From: a virus
IMG/VR virus record: IMGVR_UViG_3300020724_000005
Length of the DNA: 64,000 bases
Direction: 5' to 3' (one strand)
The notes beneath the pieces are model-generated. The model did no database searches. It was not told where the DNA came from and saw nothing but the letters and a program-made list of their open reading frames with translations. The position numbers were made by a program, and so were the translations under genes. Below, in pieces: positions 44,617-64,000 of this stretch (its first letter is position 1; each line of letters begins with the position of its first letter).

Positions 44617-44622
44617 AAAATA

Positions 44623-44853: not shown

Positions 44854-44868
44854 TACTTTGATTTTTAG

Positions 44869-45179: not shown

Positions 45180-45186
45180 AAAAATG

Positions 45187-45258
45187 CGGTCCATGACGGT
45201 TTCGATCCGTCTACTCTGCATCGACAGTGCAGTATGATAGCCACTTCACCAAAAGACC
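45187..45258 (-). tRNA. tRNA-Asp (GTC)
   Basis: loop CTGTCGA; T-loop ATCGAAA (A at position 54). Confidence 0.85.
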
Positions 45259-45263
45259 AATTG

Positions 45264-45349
45264 CACGGGTTAAGGGATTTGCACCACCTTACAGTCATCA
45301 TACTTCTTGGCTGCGCTACCAAGTGTGCTTCTCTATACACCAAACCCGT
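45264..45349 (-). tRNA. tRNA-like element, class-II shape, anticodon undetermined
   Basis: perfect 7-bp acceptor ACGGGTT/AACCCGT, T-loop-like TGCAAAT, extra arm AGT..ACT, but central arm CTTGG-TAGCGCAG-CCAAG has 8-nt loop lacking U33 context. Confidence 0.35.
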
Positions 45350-45360
45350 ATTTTTTACTG

Positions 45361-45405
45361 TATTATAAAAGTACTAAAAGATCTTGACAATTATCAAACT
45401 ATCTT
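45361..45405 (-). promoter_or_regulatory. internal promoter of tRNA array (class I box)
   Basis: minus sense TTTG-N21-TACTTTTATAAT ending ~12 nt before element 45349. Confidence 0.4.
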
Positions 45406-45410
45406 TTTAG

Positions 45411-45486
45411 TGGCGGGTATAGTAGGGATCGAACCTACGACCAACAGATTAACAGCCTGCTGCGCTACCAACTGCGCTATATACCC
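45411..45486 (-). tRNA. tRNA-Asn (GTT)
   Basis: loop CTGTTAA; CCA encoded. Confidence 0.9.
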
Positions 45487-45495
45487 AAATTTATG

Positions 45496-45568
45496 TGGAA
45501 CTATCAAGACTCGAACTTGAATTACCTACGTATCAGGCAGGCGTGCTAAACCATTCTACTATAGTTCC
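45496..45568 (-). tRNA. tRNA-Ile (GAT)
   Basis: loop CTGATAC, perfect T-arm; weak D-stem. Confidence 0.8.
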
Positions 45569-45573
45569 ATGTG

Positions 45574-45658
45574 CGGAAGATGGAGGTAACGATCCCCCTT
45601 GGGTTTTATCCCAGCCATAGCTTAGCAAGCCAGCCGATTACCTTTCTCGCAATCTTCC
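45574..45658 (-). tRNA. tRNA-Ser (GCT)
   Basis: class II, loop TTGCTAA, T-loop ATCGTTA. Confidence 0.8.
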
Positions 45659-45663
45659 TTTTG

Positions 45664-45735
45664 GGGTCTAGCCCGGTATCGAACCGAGTTATCATGCTCC
45701 ACAAACATGCGCTTCACCTTAAAGCTTCAAGACCC
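45664..45735 (-). tRNA. tRNA-His (GTG)
   Basis: loop TTGTGGA; extra 5' G(-1) opposite C73. Confidence 0.85.
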
Positions 45736-45738
45736 ATA

Positions 45739-45828
45739 TGGCGGAAGAGGCAGGACTCGAACCTACACACCGAGCAAACGATACCGGTTTTCAAGACCGG
45801 GGCGATACCAATTACGCTTTACCCTTCC
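45739..45828 (-). tRNA. tRNA-Ser (TGA)
   Basis: class II, stem CCGGT/ACCGG, loop CTTGAAA; CCA encoded. Confidence 0.85.
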
Positions 45829-45830
45829 AA

Positions 45831-45908
45831 AATAACCACTACCTATCGGACGTCATCTTTAACCTTTTGGGATCCTAACCTCTCGGTCTCTAAAGGCTTG
45901 TGGTTATT
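45831..45908 (-). other. unassigned 78-nt element filling a tRNA-sized slot
   Basis: 9-bp terminal inverted repeat AATAACCAC/GTGGTTATT; no cloverleaf found on either strand. Confidence 0.2.
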
Positions 45909-45909
45909 G

Positions 45910-45981
45910 TAGTCGCTGATGGGATCGAACCACCATCTTCGGGACCAAAACCCGACGTGTTAGCCTTTATACTAAGCGACT
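45910..45981 (-). tRNA. tRNA-Gln (TTG)
   Basis: loop TTTTGGT, perfect acceptor AGTCGCT/AGCGACT. Confidence 0.85.
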
Positions 45982-45987
45982 ATGAGG

Positions 45988-46058
45988 AGCAGATACCCGG
46001 AATCGAACCGAGGCCTCCTACTTGGAAGGAAGGAGTACTACCACTATACGATATCTGC
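45988..46058 (-). tRNA. tRNA-Gly (TCC)
   Basis: loop CTTCCAA. Confidence 0.85.
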
Positions 46059-46064
46059 TTAAAG

Positions 46065-46136
46065 TAGTCCCTGTGAATTACGATATCACAACCTCTTGGA
46101 TGTAAGCCAAGTGCTCTCCCGTTGAGCTAAGGGACT
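46065..46136 (-). tRNA. tRNA-Val (TAC)
   Basis: loop CTTACAT, T-loop ATCGTAA. Confidence 0.85.
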
Positions 46137-46243
46137 AAGTATATTATTATTCGACTTTACTCACTTATAAACCTAAAACATTTGCAACTGAATTAGGTAT
46201 TTGTCAATTTATTCTGTTCTTAGCTGTGAGACTAATAATATTG

Positions 46244-46316
46244 TGGACCGTTCCAGATTCGAACCGGAGACTCCTGCGTGCAAGGCAAGTGTGTTAGCCA
46301 ACTATACCAACAGCCC
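46244..46316 (-). tRNA. tRNA-Ala (TGC)
   Basis: loop CTTGCAC; G3-U70 present. Confidence 0.9.
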
Positions 46317-46322
46317 ATTGTG

Positions 46323-46395
46323 TCTAGATGAAAGGTGACGATCCTTCCTAGTCTTGCTCCCAAAGCAAGTGCCTCACCAACTCGGCCACATCTAG
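46323..46395 (-). tRNA. tRNA-Pro (TGG)
   Basis: loop TTTGGGA; C1-G72; T-loop ATCGTCA. Confidence 0.85.
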
Positions 46396-46429
46396 ATATT
46401 TACTTTCCAATATGTCAAAGATCACACTG

Positions 46430-46501
46430 AGGTCGATATAGGACTCAAACCCATGTGGCAGGTTTTGCAGACCTGCGCCTAAATCACTCGGCCAATCGAC
46501 C
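46430..46501 (-). tRNA. tRNA-Cys (GCA)
   Basis: loop CTGCAAA; discriminator U73. Confidence 0.9.
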
Positions 46502-46507
46502 TTACTG

Positions 46508-46580
46508 TACCCTCAAAGAGATTCGAACTCCTATCTCCTGGTCCGTAGCCAGACGTTCTGATCCTTTGAACTACAAGGGC
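46508..46580 (-). tRNA. tRNA-Arg (ACG)
   Basis: loop CTACGGA. Confidence 0.85.
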
Positions 46581-46586
46581 ATTCTG

Positions 46587-46659
46587 CGCGCACGTAGGGA
46601 CTCGAACCCTCATCTTTGGTTTTGGAGACCAATACTCTAGCCAATTGAGCTACGCACGC
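46587..46659 (-). tRNA. tRNA-Trp (CCA)
   Basis: loop CTCCAAA. Confidence 0.85.
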
Positions 46660-46667
46660 ATTTTATA

Positions 46668-47051
46668 TTATAGATCCTTTATGAACTCACTCACAAGCCT
46701 TTTGTTCTCTGACTCGTCTCCGTCGTATCCTCCTGTGCTGAATACTGACCCTTCACGATCTCTGTATTTGAGAGAAGATACTGATGAGGACTCTAACTGC
46801 AACTGACCTTCGAATCCGTAGCAAGAACAGTGTGATCCGTGTATTTCAAATAGCCCCCCTGACGTCTTGTCTCTCAGAAGGAAGAACGATCTCGAATCGC
46901 ATCCCCAAGAACCTATAGACTCATAAGCTATGAGGACTTCTTTATTTTCAAGATCCGATCCGTCACCTTCTCCGTATTCCTGTGTGAGACGCTCTATGAT
47001 CTCGAATTCTGTCTTGCCTTGAAGATCTCCTAAAGTTAGTACGCTTGTCAT
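46668..47051 (-). CDS. hypothetical protein
   Basis: 127 aa; GSWGCDSRSFFLL...HGSHCSCYGFEGQ. Confidence 0.6.
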   Translation of the reverse strand: MTSVLTLGDLQGKTEFEIIERLTQEYGEGDGSDLENKEVLIAYESIGSWGCDSRSFFLLRDKTSGGLFEIHGSHCSCYGFEGQLQLESSSVSSLKYRDREGSVFSTGGYDGDESENKRLVSEFIKDL

Positions 47052-47052
47052 A

Positions 47053-47298
47053 TTATCTGTATTTTCTTATGAGTTTAAAAAGCTCTCGTATGTCTGTGAA
47101 TTTCAATGTTTGTCCTGGCTTTATAGGAATGAACGCTATCGTAAATCCGTGGTTGCCGCAAAAGTAGTCTTCCTTCTTTATCCTGTTACCGTTCACGCTA
47201 TCAACATATATCCAAGGAAAATTGCCTGCGAGTTTTACTTCTATCCCGAGTCGTTTCATCCTGTCTATGAATACCGTCAATATGTCTCTCTGCTTCAT
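47053..47298 (-). CDS. hypothetical protein
   Basis: 81-aa ORF. Confidence 0.55.
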   Translation of the reverse strand: MKQRDILTVFIDRMKRLGIEVKLAGNFPWIYVDSVNGNRIKKEDYFCGNHGFTIAFIPIKPGQTLKFTDIRELFKLIRKYR

Positions 47299-47383
47299 TT
47301 CCTATTGCTGTTTGGTATGTTATAAAAGTAAACAAAATAATCGACATTTTAAAGCTTTTTGACGTACATTTGTTTTTTTACTG
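47299..47383 (-). promoter_or_regulatory. intergenic cassette C1
   Basis: sense box TACTTTTATAAC; opposite strand TCGACA(47341)-N18-TACATTTG(47365-47372). Confidence 0.5.
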
Positions 47384-47457
47384 TGCGCCCGGTAGGGTTC
47401 GAACCTACGACCCCCTGGTTAAAAGCCAGGTGCATCTACCAACTGAGCTACGAGCGC
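47384..47457 (-). tRNA. tRNA-Lys (TTT)
   Basis: stem CCTGG/CCAGG, loop CTTTTAA; imperfect D-stem. Confidence 0.85.
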
Positions 47458-47527
47458 ATTCTTTGAAGTTTGCCACCCGTGTTTCAGAGCAGCGCTATCG
47501 TTTTCGTTTCATTTTCGTGTTTTTGTG

Positions 47528-47599
47528 TGGTAATGAGGAATTCCGAGATCCTGCCTACGGTGCTTCAAACCGCCGCTCTGCCATCTGAGCTACATTACC
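47528..47599 (-). tRNA. tRNA-Phe (GAA)
   Basis: loop TTGAAGC; unusual T-loop CTCGGAA. Confidence 0.8.
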
Positions 47600-47604
47600 G
47601 TAAA

Positions 47605-47645
47605 TTAAAAAAGCCCTGAGAGTTTGTAGTTCCCAGGGCTTTTGA
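47605..47645 (-). terminator. intrinsic terminator
   Basis: AGCCCTG..CAGGGCT stem; minus strand followed by TTTTTT. Confidence 0.6.
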
Positions 47646-47663
47646 AGTATGATGTTTTATGTT

Positions 47664-47807
47664 TTATCTGCTGTCAGCATCATGTTGCCCTGGTTTGGAT
47701 CTAGGTTTGTCCTGCACGTTATTGATCGTACTAAAACAATAGCCTATCGAAGTCGCTTGTGTGCGGCCCGCTTGCCAAAGGTTTGTATGTATGTTACTGA
47801 GTTGCAT
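47664..47807 (-). CDS. hypothetical 47-aa protein
   Basis: MQLSNIHTNLWQAGRTQATSIGYCF...; below ORF-track cutoff. Confidence 0.3.
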   Translation of the reverse strand: MQLSNIHTNLWQAGRTQATSIGYCFSTINNVQDKPRSKPGQHDADSR

Positions 47808-47825
47808 TTTTATATAAAATCTGGA

Positions 47826-48035
47826 TTAGTTAGTTGTAGCTGCTGGAGCAAGGCTTGTTGCAAGTGCCTCAAGTGAAGTCGTTGCTGCTGTGATCGATTG
47901 AACCAAAGTATCTGCCTCTGCTGATGTAATTGCACCTGCTTGAGCTGTTTGGAATGTTTTGATTGCACTTTCAACTGTTTCTGCTGCTGTAGTAAGCGCT
48001 GCTGTTGCGTTCTGAAGATCTGTAAATGTTGCCAT
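47826..48035 (-). CDS. Ala/Thr-rich hypothetical protein
   Basis: start set to MATFTDLQNATAAL; low-complexity helical. Confidence 0.5.
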   Translation of the reverse strand: MATFTDLQNATAALTTAAETVESAIKTFQTAQAGAITSAEADTLVQSITAATTSLEALATSLAPAATTN

Positions 48036-48084
48036 AATTTTTTTTCTTTTTAGGAATTTTTTTAAAAAATACATGATGTATATC

Positions 48085-48092
48085 TATAAATA
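48085..48092 (-). promoter_or_regulatory. TATTTATA upstream box (class II)
   Basis: upstream of 47826 gene (10 nt from ATG 48074, 49 nt from ATG 48035). Confidence 0.3.
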
Positions 48093-48133
48093 TCTTATTA
48101 TTAATGTAAATCGAATTCTTGGGATAAAAAAGT

Positions 48134-48349
48134 TTATTTTTTGAGTGGGTATATCACCTCTGCGATCTTGCTCTCTGAACTTGATTTGACCTCGAAGTCC
48201 CCGATCTTGAGAGACTCAAAGTGTTCATACACCCTAGCTTCACTCTCCGTTACCGATTCGGCATCGACCAGGTATTTCACCGTCTCTTTCTTTGGCTTGT
48301 CTTTGTTAGGATCTATGGTCCTAAATTCTACTTTTACTTCAAAAAACAT
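48134..48349 (-). CDS. DUF4494-like small protein
   Basis: MFFEVKVEF...VKYLVDAESVTESEARVYE...GDFEVKS pattern recalled from Bacteroidota DUF4494. Confidence 0.45.
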   Translation of the reverse strand: MFFEVKVEFRTIDPNKDKPKKETVKYLVDAESVTESEARVYEHFESLKIGDFEVKSSSESKIAEVIYPLKK

Positions 48350-48407
48350 ATGCTTTTGGTTTTGATTATACTATGAATGTACGTCTTTTTGCCGATCTTG
48401 AGAACTT

Positions 48408-48899
48408 TTAGTCCTGAGTGACCGTATATTTTTTTCCTAGCTTTGTTATGGCCTCTACTGCCTCGTGCAGCTCGATCCTGAAGAACTCCCTGTTGTTGGC
48501 CACCCTGTACGAGTCCAAGTACTGGTGGATCTCTTCTTCTAAGAACTGGGCCTCATGACATTTGAAGCTGTACTCGACTTTGAAAGGAGACGCTACACCT
48601 GTCGCGTTCGATATCTGGTAGGCTCTCTCCTCAGGCGTGTTCTTCGTGTACCCTATCTTCAAGAGCCCTGGCATAGTTGGGTTTGAGAGCACGTATATCC
48701 AATACCTGCCTTCTCGACCTGGACCTTGGAACGCCTTCTTCCTGGCTGTGTAGTACTTGACCTCGTCCCACTGCCTGCCGTCTTCTCCTACTGGAAGAGG
48801 GGTCAAAGTATAATACTCCACAGGGTAGCCAAGCAAGTCATCCTCCTTTGAGATGTAGGAATCTGCCTCTTCTGTTGTTATACGTTGTATCTTTATCAT
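48408..48899 (-). CDS. T5orf172/MUG113 (GIY-YIG superfamily) domain protein
   Basis: YWIYVLSNPTMPGLLKIGYTKNTPEERAYQIS...PFKVEYSF...EEEIHQYL...REFF. Confidence 0.65.
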   Translation of the reverse strand: MIKIQRITTEEADSYISKEDDLLGYPVEYYTLTPLPVGEDGRQWDEVKYYTARKKAFQGPGREGRYWIYVLSNPTMPGLLKIGYTKNTPEERAYQISNATGVASPFKVEYSFKCHEAQFLEEEIHQYLDSYRVANNREFFRIELHEAVEAITKLGKKYTVTQD

Positions 48900-49060
48900 A
48901 TGATTTTTACGATTTGAAATCTAAGTTCATTGAATAAAATGTAATGAAAATCCTCTCTAAACATCTCATCAACTTCACTTTCGATATTAAGATCTAGCTC
49001 TACGGTTATCGATCTTCCTATGGCTTTAATTGCCAAATTAGTCATCCCTATCGTTTTCAT
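48896..49060 (-). CDS. hypothetical protein
   Basis: start set to MKTIGMTNLA adjacent to upstream stop. Confidence 0.45.
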   Translation of the reverse strand: MKTIGMTNLAIKAIGRSITVELDLNIESEVDEMFREDFHYILFNELRFQIVKII

Positions 49061-49269
49061 TTCCCATCGTCGATTATGAGGTATATACAAAGCATTATCA
49101 GAGGTATTCCCCACCAAGACAAGCAAACCATTACCAGGCACTCTATCAGCAGGCCGAACTTGAAAGCGCGGAGGGCAGTCGTACCGAAGTCAGAACCCAA
49201 GAACGCACACATCAGAGGAAACCAAAAGAGCAAAAGCAGCACAATCAAAATTCTCAGTAACTGTCTCAT
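49057..49269 (-). CDS. hypothetical multi-TM protein
   Basis: 70 aa, two or three hydrophobic helices. Confidence 0.5.
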   Translation of the reverse strand: MRQLLRILIVLLLLFWFPLMCAFLGSDFGTTALRAFKFGLLIECLVMVCLSWWGIPLIMLCIYLIIDDGK

Positions 49270-49270
49270 A

Positions 49271-49483
49271 CTAGCTCTCTAGTGTTACGAATGAACCAAA
49301 ATGCCTATCGAACACCGAGACAAGATTCTCATAGTCTCCACTTTTCATCTCTTCGATTATCGGTTTAGGATCCACGTCCAGCTGTTTGGCGAAATCAGTA
49401 GCGTACGCCATCAGAACATATGCGTTGCCATCAGGACCAGTAAGGTCAATGATCCTCTCCTTTTGTGTCTTTTTACGTATCAT
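49271..49483 (-). CDS. hypothetical 70-aa protein
   Basis: MIRKKTQKERIIDLTGPDGNAYVLMAYATDF...; ATG 11 nt after stop of xSQL gene. Confidence 0.5.
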   Translation of the reverse strand: MIRKKTQKERIIDLTGPDGNAYVLMAYATDFAKQLDVDPKPIIEEMKSGDYENLVSVFDRHFGSFVTLES

Positions 49484-49494
49484 ATTTTTTAATT

Positions 49495-49740
49495 TTAGAG
49501 CTGTGACCTGAGCTGTGACCTGAGCTGTGACCTGAGCTGTGACCTGATGAGCTGTGAACCGAGCTGTGACCTGAGCTGTGAACCGAGCTGTGAACCGAGC
49601 TGTGACCAGAGCTGTGAATAGAGCTGTAACCTGAGCTGTGACCAGAGCTGTGAACCGAGCTGTGAATAGAGCTGTGAATAGAGCTGTGAATTGAGCTGTG
49701 AATAGAGCTGTGAATTGAGCTGTGAATCGATCTGCTTCAT
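49495..49740 (-). CDS. xSQL tetrapeptide-repeat microprotein, copy 1
   Basis: MKQID then ~19 units xSQL (x = N,Y,G,W,R); ATG 3 nt after TACATTTA box; stop right after array. Confidence 0.5.
   Translation of the reverse strand: MKQIDSQLNSQLYSQLNSQLYSQLYSQLGSQLWSQLRLQLYSQLWSQLGSQLGSQLRSQLGSQLIRSQLRSQLRSQLRSQL
49498..49728 (-). repeat. 12-nt tandem array GAGCTGTGA+NNN
   Basis: about 19 head-to-tail units; 9 nt constant, last 3 nt variable; open in all frames. Confidence 0.95.
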
Positions 49741-49803
49741 ATCTAAATGTACGTCTTTTTTGTGAAAATTTTAAGCCATTCTCTAAAGTCCGGCCCAAAC
49801 AGC

Positions 49804-49977
49804 CTATATAAGTCTCATATCCGGATGTGTATAAGTAATCTCATACAGAGAGTCGATGATCCCATAGAAACCAAACTTCTCTAGCTCGTCGTCTAAAAAA
49901 GTATCGTGCGTGGGAGGGAATACGTGTGATATTGACTTATCGCCAAAGAGTTTCTGTATGCTCGTGTATGTTTTCAT
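49804..49977 (-). CDS. hypothetical 57-aa protein
   Basis: MKTYTSIQKLFGDKSISHVFPPTHDTFLDDELEKFGFYGIIDSLYEITYTHPDMRLI. Confidence 0.4.
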   Translation of the reverse strand: MKTYTSIQKLFGDKSISHVFPPTHDTFLDDELEKFGFYGIIDSLYEITYTHPDMRLI

Positions 49978-49978
49978 G

Positions 49979-50185
49979 TTACATCCATTTTGGTGGTTTT
50001 GGAAACTCGGTGCTATCGTCCAGCATCACTGCGATCAAGACGCCTAGCCAAGATAGTAAAAAGCTCCCTATGCATACCGCTACCCTGCCCCAATCAGGAG
50101 AATCTCCGAATTTTCTTATCCACGTTCTTCTCATCCTGCGGTAGGCCAGCACAGAGCCGGTCAATAAAATCATCAATGTTATCAT
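49979..50185 (-). CDS. hypothetical two-TM protein
   Basis: 68-aa ORF. Confidence 0.5.
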   Translation of the reverse strand: MITLMILLTGSVLAYRRMRRTWIRKFGDSPDWGRVAVCIGSFLLSWLGVLIAVMLDDSTEFPKPPKWM

Positions 50186-50190
50186 ATGTT

Positions 50191-50331
50191 TTAAATTAAT
50201 TGTGAAGTGATCATTTGGGACATATCGTAGTAAGGATCTAGGGCTATTATAATTGGAGATCTTCCTTCGAATATTAAAGACGCTTTGGGAAAAAGATCAG
50301 ATAAGTCCCAAAATAAGTCTGTCTTTTTCAT
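50191..50331 (-). CDS. hypothetical 46-aa protein
   Basis: track start 50376 is TTG; ATG 50331 overlaps upstream stop as ATGA. Confidence 0.4.
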   Translation of the reverse strand: MKKTDLFWDLSDLFPKASLIFEGRSPIIIALDPYYDMSQMITSQLI

Positions 50332-50507
50332 TTTCTTGAGTCTATGTTTAATGCGTTGACTATCTCCCAAAGGCAATCCCCAGTCGAGTTGAAGATGTTA
50401 TCCTCGGTATACCACGCTGCCTCTACTTCGTCTTGCCCATACATGTCTTCGAACGCCGCGTTGATCCTTGGCGGAACTGGGTCTATGAAATATTTTGTCT
50501 GTTTCAT
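50328..50507 (-). CDS. hypothetical 59-aa protein
   Basis: MKQTKYFIDPVPPRINAAFEDMYGQDEVEAAWYTEDNIFNSTGDCLWEIVNALNIDSRK; more protein-like than overlapping track ORF 50398..50625. Confidence 0.45.
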   Translation of the reverse strand: MKQTKYFIDPVPPRINAAFEDMYGQDEVEAAWYTEDNIFNSTGDCLWEIVNALNIDSRK

Positions 50508-50655
50508 ATATACATTTTTCTGGGATACTCAAATTTTCCTGGGGTTTGGAGTCGGCTTTTTTGCTTTTTTGCCCAAAACCCGGCGGCCGGATCTGCCCTT
50601 CGAGTAAGTATGCCCTGTTGTTCATATCTAAATGTACCTCTTTTTTTGGTCATCA

Positions 50656-50847
50656 TCACTCTTCTTCTTCAAAGTAGGGCTTTACCCACGGCGTCTCTCT
50701 AAGCATCCTTACATACTCATGTTGATCTTCTCTTGGAACACAGCCAAGCAGCGCTCTGGTCTGCTCATTGTCGTGCAATATAAACCCTCCGGTCATAAGG
50801 ATCTGGCCGTCTTTTTCTATAACTGCGAAGCTATTCTTCTTATTCAT
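50656..50847 (-). CDS. hypothetical protein
   Basis: 63-aa ORF. Confidence 0.5.
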   Translation of the reverse strand: MNKKNSFAVIEKDGQILMTGGFILHDNEQTRALLGCVPREDQHEYVRMLRETPWVKPYFEEEE

Positions 50848-50973
50848 CCTGTTAGCGAGCAGCGATGCCTCTTCGTATCCATTAGAAGAGGGGGGTGACG
50901 TGTAGTACTTTCATATGTTGTATATATTTTTTTGTCAGACGTTGAAAAATTCCCGTGTGCGTAAGTTTACCTT

Positions 50974-51112
50974 AGGCGGGGCCCCCCCTGCTAGCAGGCC
51001 CCTAGCACCATAAATGTGAGCCTTTGGCAGAATGCCAGCATCATGCTAGTGCGCCGCCTCCAAGCTGCCAGCTCAGAAGATCTCCGATACAAAAAAGGTA
51101 CCGGCCCCGCCT
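50974..51112 (-). ncRNA. GC-rich structured element (candidate ncRNA; strand uncertain)
   Basis: AGGCGGGGCC (50974) pairs with GGCCCCGCCT (51103); competing partner GCGCCGCCTCC (51051); internal palindromes CCTGCTAGCAGG, GGCAGAATGCC; no ORF. Confidence 0.35.
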
Positions 51113-51117
51113 CCTAG

Positions 51118-51381
51118 CTAGACCATCGCGCCCGTGTAGTACAGGTGCTCTTTTTCTATCATGTGTGTCGTCACGTGGCACTCCAGCTCTCTGAGCACTT
51201 GAGAGCTCAAGATCTCCTCTAGGGTGTCTACCAACACGTAGTCATCGAACCGCTGGCCTCCGTGCTCTTTCTTTATGCCTATCGAGTAGGTGATCTTGTC
51301 TTCTGTGGCTATCGCCGCCTGGTAGCTTACGTTCTTGCTCAGCCAATAGAGAACTGAGTCTCTGTCCATTATGCGTGTCAT
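51118..51381 (-). CDS. hypothetical protein
   Basis: start set to MTRIMDRDSVLYW (ATG 51381) just after cassette C2. Confidence 0.5.
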   Translation of the reverse strand: MTRIMDRDSVLYWLSKNVSYQAAIATEDKITYSIGIKKEHGGQRFDDYVLVDTLEEILSSQVLRELECHVTTHMIEKEHLYYTGAMV

Positions 51382-51458
51382 GCTGTTGTTGTTTGGTATG
51401 ATGTAAAAGTACGCAATACTTTTTACATTTTTCATTTTTTGGTCGTATATTTGTTTTT
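51382..51458 (-). promoter_or_regulatory. intergenic cassette C2
   Basis: sense box TACTTTTACATCATACC; opposite strand TTTACA(51422)-N18-TATATTTG(51446-51453). Confidence 0.5.
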
Positions 51459-51602
51459 TTAACGCATCACCTCTGACTCTATCCTCTTGGCGATCTCGTC
51501 TAGGTCGTCTGCTGAGACCTCTAGCCAGTATGTGCCAGTGGCGTACTCGTTGAATATCTTCTTTATCTGGTCCTGTATGGACTCGCTGTTCTGTGCGTTC
51601 AT
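51459..51602 (-). CDS. hypothetical 47-aa protein (paralog of 53782..53940)
   Basis: MNAQNSESIQDQIKKIFNEYATGTYWLEVSADDLDEIAKRIESEVMR. Confidence 0.5.
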   Translation of the reverse strand: MNAQNSESIQDQIKKIFNEYATGTYWLEVSADDLDEIAKRIESEVMR

Positions 51603-51686
51603 GCTGATCTGTGTTTGTGAGAGCCCAGGCCATCATCTGACTAATTCCTTGCCGCGCTCTTGGCCAGGTAGCCTGGGCTCCCATGT

Positions 51687-51932
51687 CTACATATGGCTCA
51701 GCGTACTACTGAGCTGTGAATCGAGCTGTGACCTGAGCTGTGAATTGAGCTGTGACCAGAGCTGTGAATCGAGCTGTGAATCGAGCTGTGACCAGAGCTG
51801 TGAATCGAGCTGTGACCTGAGCTGTAAATTGAGCTGTGAATAGAGCTGTTCCCTGAGCTGTGACCTGAGCTGTGAACCGATCTGTGACCTGAGCTGTGAA
51901 TTGAGCTGTGACCTTACGTCTATCTGTTTCAT
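51687..51932 (-). CDS. xSQL tetrapeptide-repeat microprotein, copy 2
   Basis: MKQIDVR then ~17 xSQL units (x = N,R,G,Y,D,W,E). Confidence 0.5.
   Translation of the reverse strand: MKQIDVRSQLNSQLRSQIGSQLRSQLREQLYSQLNLQLRSQLDSQLWSQLDSQLDSQLWSQLNSQLRSQLDSQLSSTLSHM
51711..51914 (-). repeat. 12-nt tandem array GAGCTGTGA+NNN
   Basis: same unit as 49498..49728. Confidence 0.95.
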
Positions 51933-52012
51933 GGTATTATGTTTTGGTAGTTAAATAAGAAAGTAGCGGACGTATTAGCCAGCTCCTCTCTGTGTATCAA
52001 ACAACAACTCTC

Positions 52013-53119
52013 TTATTTGTATTTTGCTATCAGGATCTCCAGCTCTTCTAGGAACTGCGGTAGTCTGTCTGTAGGGATCTGCTCTGTCTGTGCGAACCTC
52101 CATTTGAACATGTGCACCTCATCTCCTTTCTCATTGATCACGTGATAGTACCCGTCCTCTTCTCCTACGATCTGATACTCTTTGCCGTTAGTCAAATGCC
52201 TGTAAGATCCAGCCTCTTGGCATGTCATCATCCTTTTGCGTGGCTTCTCTGCCTCTTCTGCGTATGGTTCAAAGCAATCGTATGGTGTATGGTAGACGGT
52301 ATTCTCCAGATCAAAGAACCATTCTCCTCCTTCGGCAATTCTATTACTACTGAAGCCTGTTATCGTGTAGATCTCTCCTACTTGCAGGTTCGCTTCTTTG
52401 ATATAATATGCTGCACTCTTATAGATCATTGAGTCTGTCTTGACCAGCTTCACTTTCATTCCAGGTTTGTATCCCAGCCTCTTGATCTCCGCAGTGTGGT
52501 CTGTCTTTGGCTCTTCTGGTTCTATCTTCTTACGATCTCCTCTTTTGCCCCTATATGGTAGGTTCATGAAAGTGTCTTCTCGTGGATCTACTAATGTCCA
52601 AGGGTGACCATATTCGTTGATGATCCTGGTCGCGTATCCATCGCTGTCTGTCTCAAGGACTTCGTACTCGTGGCCTTCTATGTAGTATCTTGAATTGGTC
52701 TTTGTGCACCTGACGTATAGATTCCCTTCTAAGGAATTATTCCCGGCTTTGTACTCTTCGAGTCTCCTTTTCAGATCGTTATTATACGCAGGATCCTTCT
52801 TGACGTACTCTCTTCCGTTGTAATATCCATCTTTATATCCCATTAGCGTTTCTAGCGCAAACAGGGACATAAAGTCTGGTACCCGATGTTCTACTCGCCA
52901 AAGTCCTCTCTTGACATTGGTGATGAACCCAGCACGTCTGAAATACGACTGGTAGGCACGTACGCGGTACCACTGTCCGTACCATACTCTGTGTTGACCT
53001 TTTTCTCGAGTCATATCATAGAGTGCATTCTTAAAGTCCTCGCTCGTGTATGTTTCTCCTGGTTTGTAGGCGTTGATGAAGTTGACAACTGCAAAATAGA
53101 TCGTTCCTTGCTTTATCAT
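52013..53119 (-). CDS. hypothetical protein with internal beta-rich repeats
   Basis: 368 aa; three related segments (YIEGHEYEVLETDSDGY, LQVGEIYTITGF, LTNGKEYQIVGEEDGYY). Confidence 0.65.
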   Translation of the reverse strand: MIKQGTIYFAVVNFINAYKPGETYTSEDFKNALYDMTREKGQHRVWYGQWYRVRAYQSYFRRAGFITNVKRGLWRVEHRVPDFMSLFALETLMGYKDGYYNGREYVKKDPAYNNDLKRRLEEYKAGNNSLEGNLYVRCTKTNSRYYIEGHEYEVLETDSDGYATRIINEYGHPWTLVDPREDTFMNLPYRGKRGDRKKIEPEEPKTDHTAEIKRLGYKPGMKVKLVKTDSMIYKSAAYYIKEANLQVGEIYTITGFSSNRIAEGGEWFFDLENTVYHTPYDCFEPYAEEAEKPRKRMMTCQEAGSYRHLTNGKEYQIVGEEDGYYHVINEKGDEVHMFKWRFAQTEQIPTDRLPQFLEELEILIAKYK

Positions 53120-53202
53120 AATATTTTGATTGTTTGTTACTTAGTAAATGTACGTGAAATAATCGACTTAAAAAAGCTTTTTGTCAGGTATTTGTTTTCA
53201 TA
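53120..53202 (-). promoter_or_regulatory. intergenic cassette C3
   Basis: sense box GTACATTTAC; opposite strand TCGACT(53163)-N18-GGTATTTG(53187-53194). Confidence 0.5.
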
Positions 53203-53703
53203 CTATGACATATATCCCCGACCGTCTTCGTAGAATTCCCACCCGTTATCTATAATATGATCGGATATCGCCTCTTCAGAGCAAAGATATTCGTATTCAT
53301 TCTCTAACATATTAAGGTATTCTCTACTGAGGTCTTCGAGATACGCTTCTTCCAATTCTTCCAGTTCTGCTTCAGTCTTGGCTGTGTCTTCTTGGCGCTC
53401 CAGTTCATCCAGATCGCTCAGAAACTTCTTGGCGATGGAATATGTGGCGCAATGCTCACCGTGCTCAGAAACGACCTTGAGAGCGCTAGATTTGGCTGAC
53501 GTAGTGAAATTTGCCTTAATGTATGGAGGATATAGATCGAATTCTTCTATATCAAGGCCTGCTGTCCCCTTGGCGTCTTCTTTGACTGTATCTGACCACC
53601 AACCGTATCCTGTCAGTAGTTCTGAGTTGTCGGCGAGGACTTTGGCCTGTGCCTTTTCTGATAGCTCTTCAAATTTGCAAATGTTCTGTGTTACTGTACG
53701 CAT
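53203..53703 (-). CDS. hypothetical acidic protein
   Basis: start set to MRTVTQNICKFEELSEKAQAKV; ...GYGWWSD...; ends NGWEFYEDGRGYMS. Confidence 0.55.
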   Translation of the reverse strand: MRTVTQNICKFEELSEKAQAKVLADNSELLTGYGWWSDTVKEDAKGTAGLDIEEFDLYPPYIKANFTTSAKSSALKVVSEHGEHCATYSIAKKFLSDLDELERQEDTAKTEAELEELEEAYLEDLSREYLNMLENEYEYLCSEEAISDHIIDNGWEFYEDGRGYMS

Positions 53704-53781
53704 GTTGTTTGTTGTTTGGTATGTTATAAAAGTACGTGAAATAATTGACACTAGAAAGTTTCTGGACGTATATTTGTTTTC
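53704..53781 (-). promoter_or_regulatory. intergenic cassette C4
   Basis: sense box GTACTTTTATAAC; opposite strand TTGACA(53745)-N18-TATATTTG(53769-53776). Confidence 0.55.
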
Positions 53782-53940
53782 TTACTGTGTGATTATCTCG
53801 TCCACAATTCTTTTAGCAAACTCATCCAAGTCGTCTGCTGATATTTCTAACCAATACCCACCAGTCGCATACTCATTAAAGATTTTCTTTATCTGGTCCT
53901 GTATGTTTGCTTTCTGAGCTTCGTTGTTTGCTGTTGACAT
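53782..53940 (-). CDS. hypothetical 52-aa protein (paralog of 51459..51602)
   Basis: MSTANNEAQKANIQDQIKKIFNEYATGGYWLEISADDLDEFAKRIVDEIITQ. Confidence 0.5.
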   Translation of the reverse strand: MSTANNEAQKANIQDQIKKIFNEYATGGYWLEISADDLDEFAKRIVDEIITQ

Positions 53941-54025
53941 TGTTGTTGTTTTTAGTACTAGATAAAAGTAATGAATTAAATTGACACTTGAAAGTTATTT
54001 CTCAAGTATTTGTTTTTCTACTATG
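53941..54025 (-). promoter_or_regulatory. intergenic cassette C5
   Basis: sense box TTACTTTTATCTAG; opposite strand TTGACA(53981)-N18-AGTATTTG(54005-54012), pointing into ORF-free DNA. Confidence 0.5.
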
Positions 54026-54343
54026 AGACATAACCACTATATCCAGCGAATAGCTGGAGGACCAGATAATCAAAGTTGTGAGCTTTTTTACATATAACAG
54101 ATCAAGCTCACTATCCCATAATACAAACCCATATCCTAAGGGCAGACTGTCTGTTGCTATTTATTTCGCTGTCGATAGTTGTCAGGTTAGGACATTGCTA
54201 CCACTTTTAGACGTCTGATGTTTTCTTGGTGTAAAGTTAAAATCAACCACCAAGCTCTATTGTAACTGAGCGGATATTTCATTAGTGATATCTCTGTAAT
54301 AACACAAGGAATGAACCCGATTAAGACCTTATAGGTAGAGACA

Positions 54344-54374
54344 TAAAAAAAGCACCTCCTTTTGGGAGATGCTT
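54344..54374 (-). terminator. intrinsic terminator
   Basis: AGCA-C-CTCC/GGAG-A-TGCT stem; minus strand followed by TTTTTTT. Confidence 0.5.
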
Positions 54375-54407
54375 CAGTATCTGGTCCGGGTTAATAACCC
54401 CTAATGT

Positions 54408-54492
54408 GGAAAGACCCAGAATATTTTAAAGTAATGTATTATTGCGAAAGAATGAAGTCTTCGTAATGAGTGTGTAATTCTTAGGTCTTTCC
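54408..54492 (-). other. long imperfect hairpin in 3' UTR
   Basis: GGAAAGACC..AGAAT paired with ATTCT..GGTCTTTCC (14 bp) around ~55 nt. Confidence 0.4.
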
Positions 54493-54602
54493 AGGACGGT
54501 ATAATTATGTTCTCTGCTTACTGTAATAAATATACACACTTTCTCTAAGATAGAGCTTTGATGTATAAAAGTTTAGATATTATCCAAGTCTTTCTGCAAT
54601 AA

Positions 54603-54764
54603 TTATATAGACCAAGACCCAGACCCAGACTCAGACCAAGACCCAGACCCAGACCTAGACCCAGACCTAGACCTAGACCAAGACCTAGACCAAGACCCAG
54701 ACCAAGACCAAGACCCAGACCAAGACCTAGACCCAGACTTCTTTTTAAATTTAATACAGCTCAT
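54603..54764 (-). CDS. S-x dipeptide-repeat microprotein
   Basis: MSCIKFKKKSGSRSWSGSWSWSGSWSRSWSRSRSGSRSGSGSWSESGSGSWSI; ATG 2 nt after upstream stop. Confidence 0.45.
   Translation of the reverse strand: MSCIKFKKKSGSRSWSGSWSWSGSWSRSWSRSRSGSRSGSGSWSESGSGSWSI
54610..54739 (-). repeat. 6-nt tandem array GACC(C/A/T)A
   Basis: about 21 units; minus sense TCT-NGG with N = G/A/T. Confidence 0.95.
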
Positions 54765-54766
54765 AA

Positions 54767-55039
54767 TTATAGTTTAGAAGATTTACCAAAAGACTCTATA
54801 GCAGAAAGTTGGACATAATATTCGTCTCCTACTTTTTGAGCATCTTTGTATTTCTTATCTGTAAGTGGGCCTGTTTCGTACACTATATGGGCATTCTCCA
54901 GTTTAATACAAGTGTCGTTAACTCCTACCAGCTTTCCCCCATAGAAGTAGTTAGAACACATTATTAATACTTCTTCTCCGAGTAATGACAAAAGACCTTC
55001 ATTCTCTACTTCTACTACTTTAATTGGTTGCATTTTCAT
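54767..55039 (-). CDS. hypothetical small beta-barrel protein (Sm-like pattern, weak)
   Basis: LLSLLGEEVLIMCSNYFYGGKLVGVNDTCIKLENAHIVYE resembles Sm/LSm motif spacing. Confidence 0.5.
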   Translation of the reverse strand: MKMQPIKVVEVENEGLLSLLGEEVLIMCSNYFYGGKLVGVNDTCIKLENAHIVYETGPLTDKKYKDAQKVGDEYYVQLSAIESFGKSSKL

Positions 55040-55063
55040 ATTCTGTTGTTTTTAGTTATTTAT

Positions 55064-55657
55064 TTATATAGCCTTTAGTTGATACTTCTTTCCATCTATC
55101 TCTACTACTTTACCCTCGCAGCAATCTTCTTTTGGTAATCCGGTCTCAATTAACTCACCGTAACACACTTGACCTAGTACTAATTTGCCTACTTTTATTT
55201 GCATCTCTTCTTTAGTAGGTATTTTCCAAGTAGTTAATCCGGCAAATATTCTTAGTTTACTTGATAGCTCTCCTTTACAAATTATACCCCAACCAGCTTC
55301 AATACCCCAACCAGCTTCAATACCCCAACCAGCTTTAATACCCCAACCAGCTTCAATACCCAAACCAGCTTTAATACCCCAACCAGCTTTAATACCCCAA
55401 CCAGCTTTAATACCACAACCAGCTTTAATACCCCCACCAGCTTTAATACCCCCACTAGCTTCAATACCATCGCCAGCTTCAATACCACTACCAGCTTTAA
55501 AGTATATATTACCGGAAGCAGTTAAGTGGCCTTTGAATTTTACTGTTCCGAGGTCTTCTTCTGCTTCTATATGTCCTTGGTAGTTACTTAGGTCTTCTTT
55601 ACCTACGTAGTAATTGTCTTTGTCTAAATGCTCTTTTTTAATTAGAAATGTGTTCAT
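55064..55657 (-). CDS. hexapeptide-repeat (beta-helix-like) protein
   Basis: 197 aa; eleven GI(K/E)AGx units flanked by non-repetitive N- and C-domains. Confidence 0.65.
   Translation of the reverse strand: MNTFLIKKEHLDKDNYYVGKEDLSNYQGHIEAEEDLGTVKFKGHLTASGNIYFKAGSGIEAGDGIEASGGIKAGGGIKAGCGIKAGWGIKAGWGIKAGLGIEAGWGIKAGWGIEAGWGIEAGWGIICKGELSSKLRIFAGLTTWKIPTKEEMQIKVGKLVLGQVCYGELIETGLPKEDCCEGKVVEIDGKKYQLKAI
55284..55500 (-). repeat. 18-nt tandem array
   Basis: ATACCCCAACCAGCTT(C/T)A units, ~12 copies, encode GI(K/E)AG(W/G/L/C/S/D). Confidence 0.9.
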
Positions 55658-55740
55658 ATTGCTTTGTTTGTTTGGTATGATGTAAAAGTAAGTAAAAAGA
55701 TCGACACTAAAAAGAAATAACTCAGGTATTTGTTTTCTTC
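55658..55740 (-). promoter_or_regulatory. intergenic cassette C6
   Basis: sense box TACTTTTACATCATACC; opposite strand TCGACA(55701)-N18-GGTATTTG(55725-55732). Confidence 0.5.
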
Positions 55741-55760
55741 ATATGATCCTCTTCACATAA

Positions 55761-55790
55761 GAAAAAAGCCGGGGGTGGAAACCCCCGGCT
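55761..55790 (-). terminator. intrinsic terminator
   Basis: 9-bp GC stem AGCCGGGGG/CCCCCGGCT; minus strand followed by TTTTTT. Confidence 0.7.
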
Positions 55791-55807
55791 CATATACCAA
55801 CTAACAA

Positions 55808-56638
55808 CTATGCTGTTTCATACTTCTCTGCCAGAGTCCAGAGCTTCTGGTTGATCTCCAGGTCAGTGATCGGGTTCTTTATAGGACGTGCGACTCTCTC
55901 GTTGAGGCTGAATCCTCCTTTGATGATCCCTTCTTGGCACACGTTGTAGGTGACCCAAAGGCTTTTGCCCCTGTCTTCAGTGCGGCGAGGCTGCAGAAGG
56001 TCTACGATCTCGTACTGCTCAGGCTGTCGGTCTGTGTTCATGCGCAGAGCAAGAGCTTCTGTAGCGAACTGGTAGCGCTGGCGGTCTGTCATCTCTATCA
56101 TGTTCCAGCGGTTGATCTTGGTCACTGCCTTCTCCATGTCCACGACCTTCTGGTCAACGATCATCTTCACCTCTTCTTGGTTGTATTTTATGTGGCGCTC
56201 TTTCATGCTGCCGAAGTCCTGTGTCTTGATGATCAACCCGTTAGAGCACACCAGCCTGAAGATGCCGGCTTCTATCTGAAGTGGGCGGCAGCCGTTGCTG
56301 TTGTTGATCACGACCATTGTAGGACGGCCTTCTATTCCTCCGCGTCCGTCTTTCATGTAGAGCTCTTCGTTCTGGAACTCCATGATGTGCGTACCAAACG
56401 TGGTGTAGATCTCGTTTCCTTTGCGGCTCTTTGACTGCTTGGCGTTGGTGAGCTTCCACCCCTGCCCGTCCAGGTGCTCGATCAGGTCGATAGAGCTTAC
56501 GAACTTGTAGTTGCCGCTCAGGCGAGATGCTGGTCCAGGCGCGAATATGCCTGGAGCTTTCTGCTTTGCTGTCTCTAGAGACATGGGAGCGATCATGTTG
56601 TTCTTGTTGTTGCTTGCGAGCATTACTTCTGTCTGCAT
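55808..56638 (-). CDS. DUF932-family protein
   Basis: 276 aa; FRLVCSNGLI core typical of DUF932 (phage/plasmid-like). Confidence 0.6.
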   Translation of the reverse strand: MQTEVMLASNNKNNMIAPMSLETAKQKAPGIFAPGPASRLSGNYKFVSSIDLIEHLDGQGWKLTNAKQSKSRKGNEIYTTFGTHIMEFQNEELYMKDGRGGIEGRPTMVVINNSNGCRPLQIEAGIFRLVCSNGLIIKTQDFGSMKERHIKYNQEEVKMIVDQKVVDMEKAVTKINRWNMIEMTDRQRYQFATEALALRMNTDRQPEQYEIVDLLQPRRTEDRGKSLWVTYNVCQEGIIKGGFSLNERVARPIKNPITDLEINQKLWTLAEKYETA

Positions 56639-63702: not shown

Positions 63703-63852
63703 CTATTTGCCAGATTTGTATCTTTCTATCAGTCCTTTTGCGTAAATTTTCAAGCTGCCTATCTTTATATCTACTCCGTTGAAAGTCAGATAGAAAGTAA
63801 ATAGGACGAATGATATTATCCTGATGACGTTTAACTTATTGATCTTCTTCAT
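63703..63852 (-). CDS. 49-aa TM peptide
   Basis: MKKINKLNVIRIISFVLFTFYLTFNGVDIKIGSLKIYAKGLIERYKSGK; ATGA overlap with stop of xSQL copy 3. Confidence 0.35.
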   Translation of the reverse strand: MKKINKLNVIRIISFVLFTFYLTFNGVDIKIGSLKIYAKGLIERYKSGK

Positions 63853-64000
63853 GCTTTTATGTTTTGGAGCTGTGAATCGAGCTGTGACCAGAGCTGTAAA
63901 TTGAGCTGTGAACCGAGCTGTGAACCGAGCTGTGACCAGAGCTGTGAATTGAGCTGTGACCTGAGCTGTGACCTGAGCTGTGAACCGAGCTGTGAATAGA
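63849..64000 (-). CDS. xSQL tetrapeptide-repeat microprotein, copy 3 (5' end outside window)
   Basis: same frame ...DSQLQNIKA stop at 63849-63851; array runs to window edge. Confidence 0.45.
   Translation of the reverse strand, partial: YSQLGSQLRSQLRSQLNSQLWSQLGSQLGSQLNLQLWSQLDSQLQNIKA
63867..64000 (-). repeat. 12-nt tandem array GAGCTGTGA+NNN (truncated by window)
   Basis: same unit as 49498 and 51711 arrays. Confidence 0.95.

Follow-up and report, generated by a model that had tools for sequence, protein, structure and literature searches.

Free-standing xSQL-repeat microgenes in a large phage genome and their probable relationship to the central repeat of DUF6745 proteins

The window analysed here is a 64,000-nt stretch of viral DNA (IMG/VR record IMGVR_UViG_3300020724_000005). 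Its minus strand carries at 51687..51932 a short gene, listed as an ORF of 81 codons (stop included) with an ATG start, to which we refer as xSQL microgene copy 2. The product runs MKQIDVRSQLNSQLRSQIGSQL...DSQLSSTLSHM in the ORF listing, and codon-by-codon parsing divides it into MKQIDV, 16 units of the x-S-Q-L type and a degenerate SSTL unit, which begins the tail SSTLSHM. Beneath the gene, Tandem Repeats Finder reports a 12-nt tandem array at 51708..51911 (17.0 copies, 78% matches, score 219). On the minus strand the unit in copy 2 consists of a variable codon, x, followed by TCA CAG CTC, and chance cannot account for a 17-unit array of one such 9-mer. The window arrays use only six x codons (GAT, AAT, TAT, GGT, TGG and AGG), and their units depart rarely from the invariant part (TTA or GAA for TCA, ATC for CTC). 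The 12-nt unit, the MKQID start, the roughly 17 units and the DSQLSSTLSHM ending noticed in a first-pass annotation of the sequence are all borne out by the ORF listing and by Tandem Repeats Finder, and the S-to-L (NLQL), S-to-E (REQL) and L-to-I (RSQI) changes that it mentioned are present in the codon parsing. Its list of x residues requires one amendment: R, N, G, Y, D and W occupy x in copy 2 as stated, but E does not, and instead replaces S once (REQL).

A GC-rich inverted repeat (51618..51683, minus strand) separates copy 2 from a 47-aa gene (51459..51602, minus strand) that is a paralogue of a 52-aa gene at 53782-53940. Both features had been pointed out earlier, the repeat as a 10-bp one; its arms (51618-51630 and 51671-51683) measure 13 nt, are 92% complementary and lie 40 nt apart, and the RNA fold has an energy of -37.9 kcal/mol (z = -2.9). 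We rejected its reading as a classical intrinsic terminator because no T-run follows the hairpin. The inverted repeat was looked for at the other xSQL copies and was absent there, and is specific to copy 2 rather than a feature of the family. Sigma-70-type promoters and terminators near copies 1 and 2 showed no excess over shuffled expectation. There is no Bacteroidetes-like TAnnTTTA box directly upstream of copy 2; such a box (TACATTTA) lies 4 nt upstream of the copy 1 ATG. The TAG codon that ends copy 2 was also considered as a candidate for amber suppression. We take it to be a normal stop, since the odd tRNA at 45104-45179 is Arg-CCU-like and not CUA (with an 8-nt anticodon loop, CUCCUAUA) and since TAG terminates 16 of the 62 long ORFs of the window.

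Two sister copies are present on the same strand. Copy 1 (49495..49740, minus strand) encodes 81 aa, beginning MKQID and ending RSQL before the stop, over an array at 49498-49726 (18.8 copies, Tandem Repeats Finder), and carries one in-frame 3-nt insertion (ATC). Immediately downstream of it is a 70-aa gene (49271..49483, minus strand) that belongs to PHROG 1933, function not assigned. Copy 3 is cut by the window end, which leaves its 3' part (63849..64000, minus strand) and an array detected by Tandem Repeats Finder from 63867 to the window end; the full gene, taken from the identical contig L006, encodes 69 aa (MNEINSQL...QNIKA). Its TGA stop is overlapped by the ATG of a gene for a 49-aa predicted membrane protein (63703..63852, minus strand), forming ATGA, and this overlap is kept in all seven relatives checked. 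Copies 1 and 2 differ in the order of their x residues and share no identical run longer than 26 nt, in agreement with the earlier view that the copies are not recent exact duplicates.

The microgenes sit on the minus strand among many small genes, which form a block of the kind usual in early or accessory regions. The phage genome represented by the window has about 21 tRNA genes and a tmRNA gene, and the window encodes a baseplate wedge protein, an SbcC-like nuclease, a primase, an ECF-type sigma factor, a DUF932 protein and an HNH endonuclease. Megablast of positions 49000-56000 found no DNA relatives among cultured phages; by its primase, the best cultured relative is a 160-kb Flavobacterium myophage (38% amino-acid identity). 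On direct reading of the sequence, the genes show no obvious Shine-Dalgarno sequences. From the Flavobacterium primase relative and the lack of obvious Shine-Dalgarno sequences we infer a Bacteroidota host. The xSQL family belongs to large myovirus-like phages of about 150 kb, the hosts of which are probably Bacteroidota.

We scanned viral contigs with an exact pattern of three consecutive units, which returned 15 loci. Together with two long contigs fetched later, these loci supplied 33 different xSQL ORFs that stand alone; they encode 29-98 aa, and a contig usually has several of them. Contig L006 is 100% identical to window positions 60219-64000 and runs about 2 kb past the window end. It contains, in order, a 340-aa DUF6745-like gene (171-1193), microgenes A and B, a 66-aa gene, microgene C (copy 3 of the window) and the gene for the 49-aa membrane protein. 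Microgene A (67 aa) begins 116 nt past the DUF6745 stop, microgene B encodes 75 aa (78 aa from an alternative upstream ATG), and from stop codon to start codon the microgenes and the small genes that follow them either touch or overlap. As L006 adds two further copies just past the window end, the source genome holds at least five; three of them come straight after the DUF6745 gene, and copies 1 and 2 follow some 12-14 kb beyond. L020, a relative of 152.8 kb, carries seven or more microgenes no further than 6 kb from its DUF6745 gene. Multiple xSQL copies are kept in every related genome examined, and each upstream class of microgenes has its own conserved leader sequence of 25-55 nt.

Eight of the stand-alone products were sought in a collection of 15 billion proteins and none was present, from which it follows that gene callers skip the microgenes; the absence says nothing for expression. 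In cellular genomes, a 33-nt pattern matched 13 contigs, all of them through 3-unit chance repeats except one small contig bearing DUF6745, and no long arrays were found there outside DUF6745 genes.

The ORF listing shows several frames open on both strands at the arrays. We dropped the openness of the reading frame as coding evidence because the unit cannot form a stop in any sense frame, so that all three sense frames of an array are necessarily open. Other features of the sequences are informative. All 33 stand-alone copies begin with M-K-(Q/E)-I, in which Ile is invariant, and the motif is written with varying codons (Ile as ATT in 17 copies, ATA in 13 and ATC in 3; Lys as AAA in 26 and AAG in 6; Gln as CAA in 11 and CAG in 7). 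Between copies 1 and 2 there are three synonymous changes within MKQID itself. The slot between the 66-aa and 49-aa genes, which copy 3 fills in this genome, retains a microgene in at least five lineages in which the flanking proteins are 67-88% identical. In every case the slot microgene starts 1-2 nt past the upstream stop and overlaps the downstream gene through ATGA, and these junctions hold for arrays that range from 6 to 15 units and are unrelated in their order of x. Stop codons occur at none of 294 x positions, against about 9 expected from position-wise base frequencies (P about 1e-4), and TAT, TAC and TGG are common among these codons. No array continues beyond its stop.

Within a genome, the Ser, Gln and Leu codons of the unit show no synonymous variation at all, a uniformity that fits concerted evolution and would equally fit constraint at the nucleotide level. 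Between lineages the spelling differs: xSQL is written with TCA CAG CTC here, TCG CAG CTC in a Bryobacteraceae MAG of 61% GC, AGC CAG TTG in L018 and AGC CAG CTC in L022. These differences exclude a purely nucleotide-level function, and the uniformity within genomes is then explained as concerted evolution. They weigh directly on the reading that the array functions as DNA or RNA (by binding proteins, by serving replication or partition, as a hot spot of recombination or as an RNA sponge) and that the ORF is incidental. That reading could draw on the conservation of the 9-mer TCACAGCTC across units and in many related contigs, with rare departures in the window, on the loss of homology between the window and the related contig L010 about 40 nt upstream of copy 2, and on the open frames on both strands. 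However, other lineages encode the motif with different nucleotides, some of them from the other Ser codon box; the three variable nucleotides fall exactly on one codon of the xSQL frame; start, stop and coupling are conserved; Rfam has no match; and long arrays are missing from cellular genomes save inside DUF6745 genes. We consider it highly improbable, and it is the least compatible with the data of the readings considered. At the level of sequence comparison, protein-level selection is shown to act on the xSQL motif and on the N-terminus, and copy 2 is very probably a genuine translated gene. Five independent kinds of evidence, namely the conserved start, the coupling, the avoidance of stops at x, the reading of an identical nucleotide unit in the xSQL frame within DUF6745 proteins and the differing codons for the motif in distant relatives, likewise support the original description of a repeat microgene that is one of three non-identical copies.

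To follow array evolution over a short distance, the window was compared with L010, which matches positions 45263-51975 with 99.4% identity by BLAST (indels counted) and with 99.9% identity at the substitution level outside the microgenes. The L010 orthologue of copy 2 has 15 units and differs by four substitutions, with flanks that are 99.9% identical, and the comparison includes a clean two-unit deletion. The two 246-nt microgenes hold 7 of the 14 substitutions within 492 of the 6712 nt compared, a 12.6-fold excess over the flanks (Fisher p = 2.4e-5), and all seven are non-synonymous. The consensus is restored by two of the microgene changes, and one of these involves two neighbouring nucleotides. 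Copy 1 of L010 shares a 132-nt identical run with copy 3 whereas copy 1 of the window shares only 59 nt, and three clustered differences between the two versions of copy 1 track the match to copy 3; no donor was found for the window-specific variant segment of copy 1. The arrays undergo both rapid change at x and conversion-like exchange, which is how the unit-by-unit alignment that had been recommended to separate gene conversion from drift turned out: fast point change at x, plus a conversion-like tract.

Each x amino acid is encoded by a single codon within a genome. The third bases are fixed, as T or G here and as C or G in other lineages, so diversity is generated at the first two codon positions. 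The x codons are mostly NNT or NNC, which gives them a DGR-like look. The 12.6-fold non-synonymous excess, the changes in unit number and the restricted, binding-site-like alphabet at x point to diversifying selection; such selection is the usual mark of host-phage or phage-phage conflict.

The same instability could be expected if the arrays were fragments of the DUF6745 repeat spread by recombination and driven by slippage, functionless whether translated or not. Unit indels, clustered changes and a very high turnover fit this explanation, as do the Ser, Gln and Leu codons, whose identity within a genome is what recent slippage predicts. There is also a degenerate copy in L020 (11190-11453), in-frame stops are present in arrays of L019 (TAA) and L022 (TAG), and gene callers ignore the microgenes. 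Debris would not be expected, however, to keep an ATG-K-(Q/E)-I start with synonymous variation through 33 copies, to avoid stops at x, to retain a syntenic, coupled copy across lineages whose flanking proteins have diverged to 67-88% identity, to carry a conserved 25-55-nt leader in each upstream class or to persist in multiple copies in every related genome examined. We therefore regard non-functional debris as quite unlikely.

The relatives of the repeat point to its origin. With the 81-aa product as query, phmmer gave 16 word-index matches, mostly truncated by contig ends, in which an N-domain of about 70 aa is followed by xSQL repeats. An exhaustive search returned 616 cluster representatives; nearly all of the best 150 are 300-530 aa long with the repeat setting in around residues 70-180, the very long matches among the 616 are unrelated low-complexity proteins, and no short stand-alone form was found among the matches. 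The DUF6745 domain (PF20530) is present in six of the eight matches tested. L015 has the TCA CAG CTC unit itself within a gene for a 370-aa protein, where it is read as xSQL/xSQI; the C-terminus of this protein is a DUF6745 domain (E = 1.9e-51). For the DUF6745-like protein of this phage there are 275 homologues, and their lengths differ in steps of four residues. In these proteins a repeat of consensus x-(S/D/A)-(Q/S/N)-(L/V/I) is placed between a conserved N-domain of about 70 aa (pattern ..LT.EQ...IP.Y...W..IG.....ID...A...Y...G...P.I....SP..) and the C-terminal DUF6745 domain of about 200 aa. It takes the form xSQL, xSSL, x(D/A)QV or x(D/A)SV in 0 to more than 50 units, and near-identical flanks bear from about 7 to about 35 units. 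DUF6745 also bears invariant Cys and His residues.

The central repeat of DUF6745 thus resembles the microgene in its motif, which is literally xSQL in many members, in its x alphabet (W, R, G, D, Y, N), in its unstable unit number and, in some viral contigs, in the TCA CAG CTC unit. Unlike DUF6745 proteins, the microgene has its own ATG, stop and upstream sequence and exists in 5 to 7 or more copies per genome. Of the parts of a DUF6745 protein it has the central variable-number repeat and lacks the N-domain and the C-domain: a Pfam scan found no PF20530 in copies 1 and 2, tblastn of DUF6745 N-domains and C-domains against the window found nothing, and the microgene opens straight into the repeat, MKQI being itself a unit-like tetrapeptide. 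The DUF6745 gene of this phage, just past the window end, has no internal repeat. In its closest relatives with one, P0028 and P0029 (48-55% identity), a stretch of 6-31 xSQL units stands at precisely the site that about 40 non-repeat residues occupy in the phage protein. On these comparisons, the microgene repeat is in all likelihood homologous to the central tetrapeptide repeat of DUF6745. Literature searches found nothing on DUF6745, PF20530, its repeat strings or hypervariable phage tetrapeptide repeats. DUF6745 is already catalogued and is uncharacterised, and no description or annotation appears to exist of hypervariable tetrapeptide-repeat microgenes that stand free in several copies and are linked to a repeat-less DUF6745 gene.

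Structure prediction gives an impression of what the repeat might look like. AlphaFold models the repeat-less DUF6745 partner as one compact body (pLDDT 91.6, pTM 0.80). In P0029 it draws the 31-unit repeat as two antiparallel helices (96-147 and 155-213) with pLDDT of 45-63, and the domains stay confident. With low confidence, then, the DUF6745 repeat may be modelled as a projecting helical hairpin of variable length. The strict period of 4.0 residues is awkward for a canonical coiled coil. The model of the repeat-less partner has no relative in the PDB (best E = 0.03, TM about 0.1), its BFVD matches are DUF6745 proteins only (for example from Microcystis phage LMM01), and PDB sequence searches were empty.

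DUF6745 genes have a constant companion. In 15 of the 16 contexts that could be inspected, among them very distant ones and a prophage-like region of Chitinophaga, DUF6745 directly adjoins a His-rich protein of about 122 aa (113-125 aa). This neighbour has seven invariant His residues and several invariant Asp and Glu residues (HQGDV, GEHSGHxH, QHxHE, ADH), and their invariance suggests that it may bind metal. Its identity is 55-60% in comparisons in which the DUF6745 proteins reach only about 40-46%. Searches of Pfam, NCBIfam and the PDB gave no match, and it falls in PHROG 27831, function not assigned. For DUF6745 and its 122-aa partner alike, no fold or sequence relative of known function was found, and tblastn of P0017, the repeat-less DUF6745 protein, found no relative among cultured phages. 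Stand-alone arrays accompany DUF6745 genes in variable ways. L022, with a more distant repeat-less gene, has a stand-alone xSQL array 90 nt upstream of it, and L024 has a repeat-bearing DUF6745 gene without a stand-alone array. No stand-alone array lies within 8 kb of the repeat-less genes of L023 and L025, so a gene without the repeat need not have stand-alone repeats beside it.

This arrangement resembles that of RiPP clusters, in which several small ORFs in tandem, alike at their start and variable in the rest, stand beside conserved genes, here ones likely to be catalytic or metal-binding. The repeat peptides could accordingly be imagined as substrates or precursors that are modified or processed by the DUF6745 domain, the 122-aa protein or both. 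The tandem microgenes directly beside the DUF6745 gene, each with a conserved short N-terminus, would suit such a role, as would the invariant Cys and His of DUF6745, the possible metal binding of the His-rich neighbour that adjoins it in the 15 contexts and the nature of the invariant repeat positions (Ser/Asp/Ala, Gln/Ser/Asn and Leu/Val/Ile). Yet for neither partner was an enzyme fold or an enzyme family, known tailoring enzymes included, found. The only leader would be four residues long, which is far below the length of known recognition leaders and not recognisable as one. No protease, transporter or immunity genes were seen nearby, nor genes for export; copies 1 and 2 are remote from the module; and in most family members the repeat is internal to a protein, unlike a released product. 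A precursor role is in our judgement unlikely.

The genomic setting of cellular DUF6745 genes raises another explanation, in which the microproteins act independently on a target in the host or in a rival element, for example by dominant-negative pairing with the stalks of prophage DUF6745 proteins, and x diversifies in an arms race. Cellular DUF6745 genes occur in the early regions of prophages, with repressor-like HTH genes on one side and genes for replication or recombination on the other, and DUF6745 is common in prophage-like early regions of this kind in bacteria (for example in Chitinophaga). Seven non-synonymous changes out of seven between near-isogenic arrays, the lack of synonymous codon pairs at x within a genome and the location of copies 1 and 2, which are surrounded by small, early-type genes and lie far away from the DUF6745 gene, would all be in keeping with a decoy. 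On the other side, DUF6745 is uncharacterised, the only match to defence and anti-defence families is one weak, low-complexity hit, and at least three copies are tightly linked to the phage's own DUF6745 gene, which favours a partnership within the genome. We hold this explanation to be very unlikely.

We return to a relationship with the phage's own DUF6745 gene. That copy 2 belongs to a translated, fast-evolving family of xSQL microproteins and represents a detached, diversifying DUF6745 stalk is a reading to which we give about an even chance on the sequence comparisons. In this lineage the DUF6745 gene has lost its internal repeat, and at least five small genes of their own encode the repeat instead. 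The xSQL peptides would be helical and might work in trans with, or compete with, the DUF6745 protein and its His-rich neighbour of about 122 aa, with the x positions as a variable contact surface and their action timed to early infection. This functional model, of a detached stalk that acts in trans with the DUF6745/122-aa module early in infection, was drawn from the linkage, from the complementary occurrence of internal and free repeats in the lineage and from the hairpin model, and we put it forward tentatively. Because DUF6745 and the 122-aa partner have no relative of known function, the trans-acting role is purely conjectural. The 12-14 kb that separate the DUF6745 gene from copies 1 and 2 speak against a partner model. 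More speculatively, and somewhat improbably, the split-out stalk might form a small library of independently expressed microproteins that dock onto the two-gene module or compete with it, a trans-acting and swappable determinant of specificity under arms-race selection. Such a library would diversify by unit slippage, by point change at one codon per unit and by conversion between arrays.

If this last proposal were true, the stalk library would be a new route to protein diversity in phages, distinct from DGRs and tail-fibre cassettes, and would open a first way to the function of a widespread DUF. Should the microproteins be expressed and functional, they would constitute a hidden gene family that annotation pipelines skip or call in the wrong frame, and they illustrate how low-complexity filters and gene-length cut-offs hide short phage repeat genes. 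They also tie the stand-alone repeats, DUF6745 (hundreds of cluster representatives) and the His-rich 122-aa neighbour into one testable system, which makes both a widespread DUF and a putative mechanism of diversification accessible to experiment.

Several known systems offer themselves for comparison. Matches of the microgene to DUF826, DUF668 and a type I S subunit (in Pfam, PHROGs, PADLOC and NCBIfam) are sub-threshold and were set aside as artefacts of composition. A DGR variable region was rejected because the adenines of TCA CAG never vary, because TGG and AGG misfit A-to-N changes and because no template repeat is evident. An iteron, CRISPR or other non-coding array was likewise rejected: the units run head to tail, their 3-nt variable part equals one codon, conservation is at the amino-acid level and Rfam gave no match. 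Pentapeptide-repeat proteins such as Qnr and MfpA are built from an A-(D/N)-L-x-x unit. The xSQL repeat recalls these in its long uninterrupted arrays and in its succession of a small residue, a polar amide or acid, an aliphatic residue and a variable one, which is their consensus minus one position. It differs in its period, which is 4 aa (12 nt) and not 5, and in that AlphaFold prefers helices over a beta-helix; a Pfam scan of the microgene found no Pentapeptide model at E <= 0.01.

A closer parallel is found in type IC restriction-modification specificity subunits. In HsdS of EcoR124I/II and EcoDXXI, a 12-bp repeat encodes TAEL in the central helical spacer (PMC3874165). The TAEL copy number shifts by recombination or slippage and sets molecular length or distance, and the spacer forms an antiparallel coiled coil (PMC3874165). 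PADLOC matched the microgene to the central helical spacer of its Specificity_I model (E = 0.0012, 16 bits), which we rejected as evidence of homology since it is a low-complexity match. There are no genes for an HsdM methyltransferase or HsdR among the neighbouring ORFs and no TRDs in the 81-aa protein, and the microgene has none of the target-recognition domains and M and R partners of HsdS. The numbers of repeats also differ, with 2-3 in HsdS and 6 to more than 50 in the xSQL/DUF6745 family. The likeness lies in the 12-bp repeat, in the 4-residue unit ending in Leu and in the antiparallel helix pair of the DUF6745 model. We regard the TAEL repeat of HsdS as the nearest mechanistic precedent for the xSQL repeat, as an analogy in the way the two may work and not in descent.

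The DUF6745 gene, whose central tetrapeptide repeat is homologous to the xSQL arrays, is directly adjoined in 15 of 16 contexts by a gene for a His-rich protein of approximately 113 to 125 aa. This gene lies outside the window, at 9463-9831 in the 152.8-kb relative L020, at 1515-1880 in the more distant relative L022 and at 8448-8816 in a further locus, L039; the protein was also found in the contigs L003-L005, L011, L013, L015-L017, L019, L021 and L023-L025. The His-rich protein is more conserved than its DUF6745 neighbour and carries the motif HQGDV..GEHSGHxH..TGDV..QHxHE..ADH, with seven invariant histidines. It had no match in Pfam, NCBIfam or the PDB, and its group is PHROG 27831, which is annotated as unknown function. 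The His-rich protein is probably a metal-binding partner of DUF6745, the pair forming a conserved two-gene module.

The arrays of one sub-lineage (L001, L003, L004, L008, L009 and L012) each contain one or several copies of a recurrent irregular unit that reads W-R-(S/P)-L or W-H-P-L and precedes A/D-SQL. This unit could act as a turn element or helix breaker, or could merely be a variant unit that has been propagated. Two metagenomic relatives have in-frame stops inside their xSQL arrays: a TAA at an x position in L019 (~5340) and, in L022, a TAG at a Q position that exactly replaces CAG (143-145). These stops could reflect pseudogenisation, sequencing or assembly error in the repeats, or on/off variation.

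The window encodes a phage tmRNA (41519-41913, minus strand; Rfam RF00023, 69.6 bits) with the tag ANVELSTWTFEDAMAFAEGELEMAA. Adjoining it is a minus-strand cluster of approximately 21 tRNA genes (40992-47599), one of which (47528-47599) was found by Rfam and missed by ARAGORN. In the tRNA at 45104-45179 (minus strand) the anticodon loop is 8 nt long (CUCCUAUA), and ARAGORN assigns it a four-base anticodon, ccta. An amber suppressor identity was considered and rejected, as this tRNA is most simply read as Arg-CCU-like with an expanded loop. Wherever arginine stands at the x position of the xSQL arrays, its codon is AGG.

The +1 frame of the xSQL arrays (FTAQ/VTAL...) is continuous with the downstream gene at copies 1 and 3, i.e. 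in two of three cases, which is not beyond chance. This open frame spans 49271-49798 (minus strand) in the window and 11685-12014 in L020, where running into the downstream gene has given rise to a chimeric 90-aa ORF from the JGI gene caller. Such continuity of the +1 frame is a likely source of mis-annotation.

Two paralogous small genes, of 47 aa (51459-51602) and 52 aa (53782-53940), both on the minus strand, share IQDQIKKIFNEYATG.YWLE.SADDLDE. One lies directly downstream of copy 2 in the window, and a homologue of the other lies directly upstream of copy 2 in the related contig L010. A mosaic breakpoint between the window and L010 extends over 51975-53764. Identity (99.4% by BLAST) ends at 51975, ~40 nt upstream of the copy 2 ATG, and L010 resumes with a homologue of 53764-54195; the 368-aa and 182-aa genes (52013-53751) of the window are therefore missing from L010.

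Besides xSQL, the window has a second repeat microgene (54603-54764, minus strand; 53 aa), which starts with MSCIKFKKKS and continues with (G/W/R/E)-S dipeptide repeats (period 6/18 nt, ~22 units). Its counterpart in the related contig L001 (10763-10990) is conserved, but has 69 aa and a different unit order. The variable residues G, W and R of this microgene are written with NGG codons and share their alphabet with the x position of the xSQL arrays. Nearby, a 197-aa protein (55064-55657, minus strand) contains ~13 hexapeptide repeats, GI(K/E)AG(W/G/L/C/D/S), encoded by an array with an 18-nt period (12 copies, 90% matches). It had no match in Pfam or PHROG, and looks like a beta-helix-type repeat.
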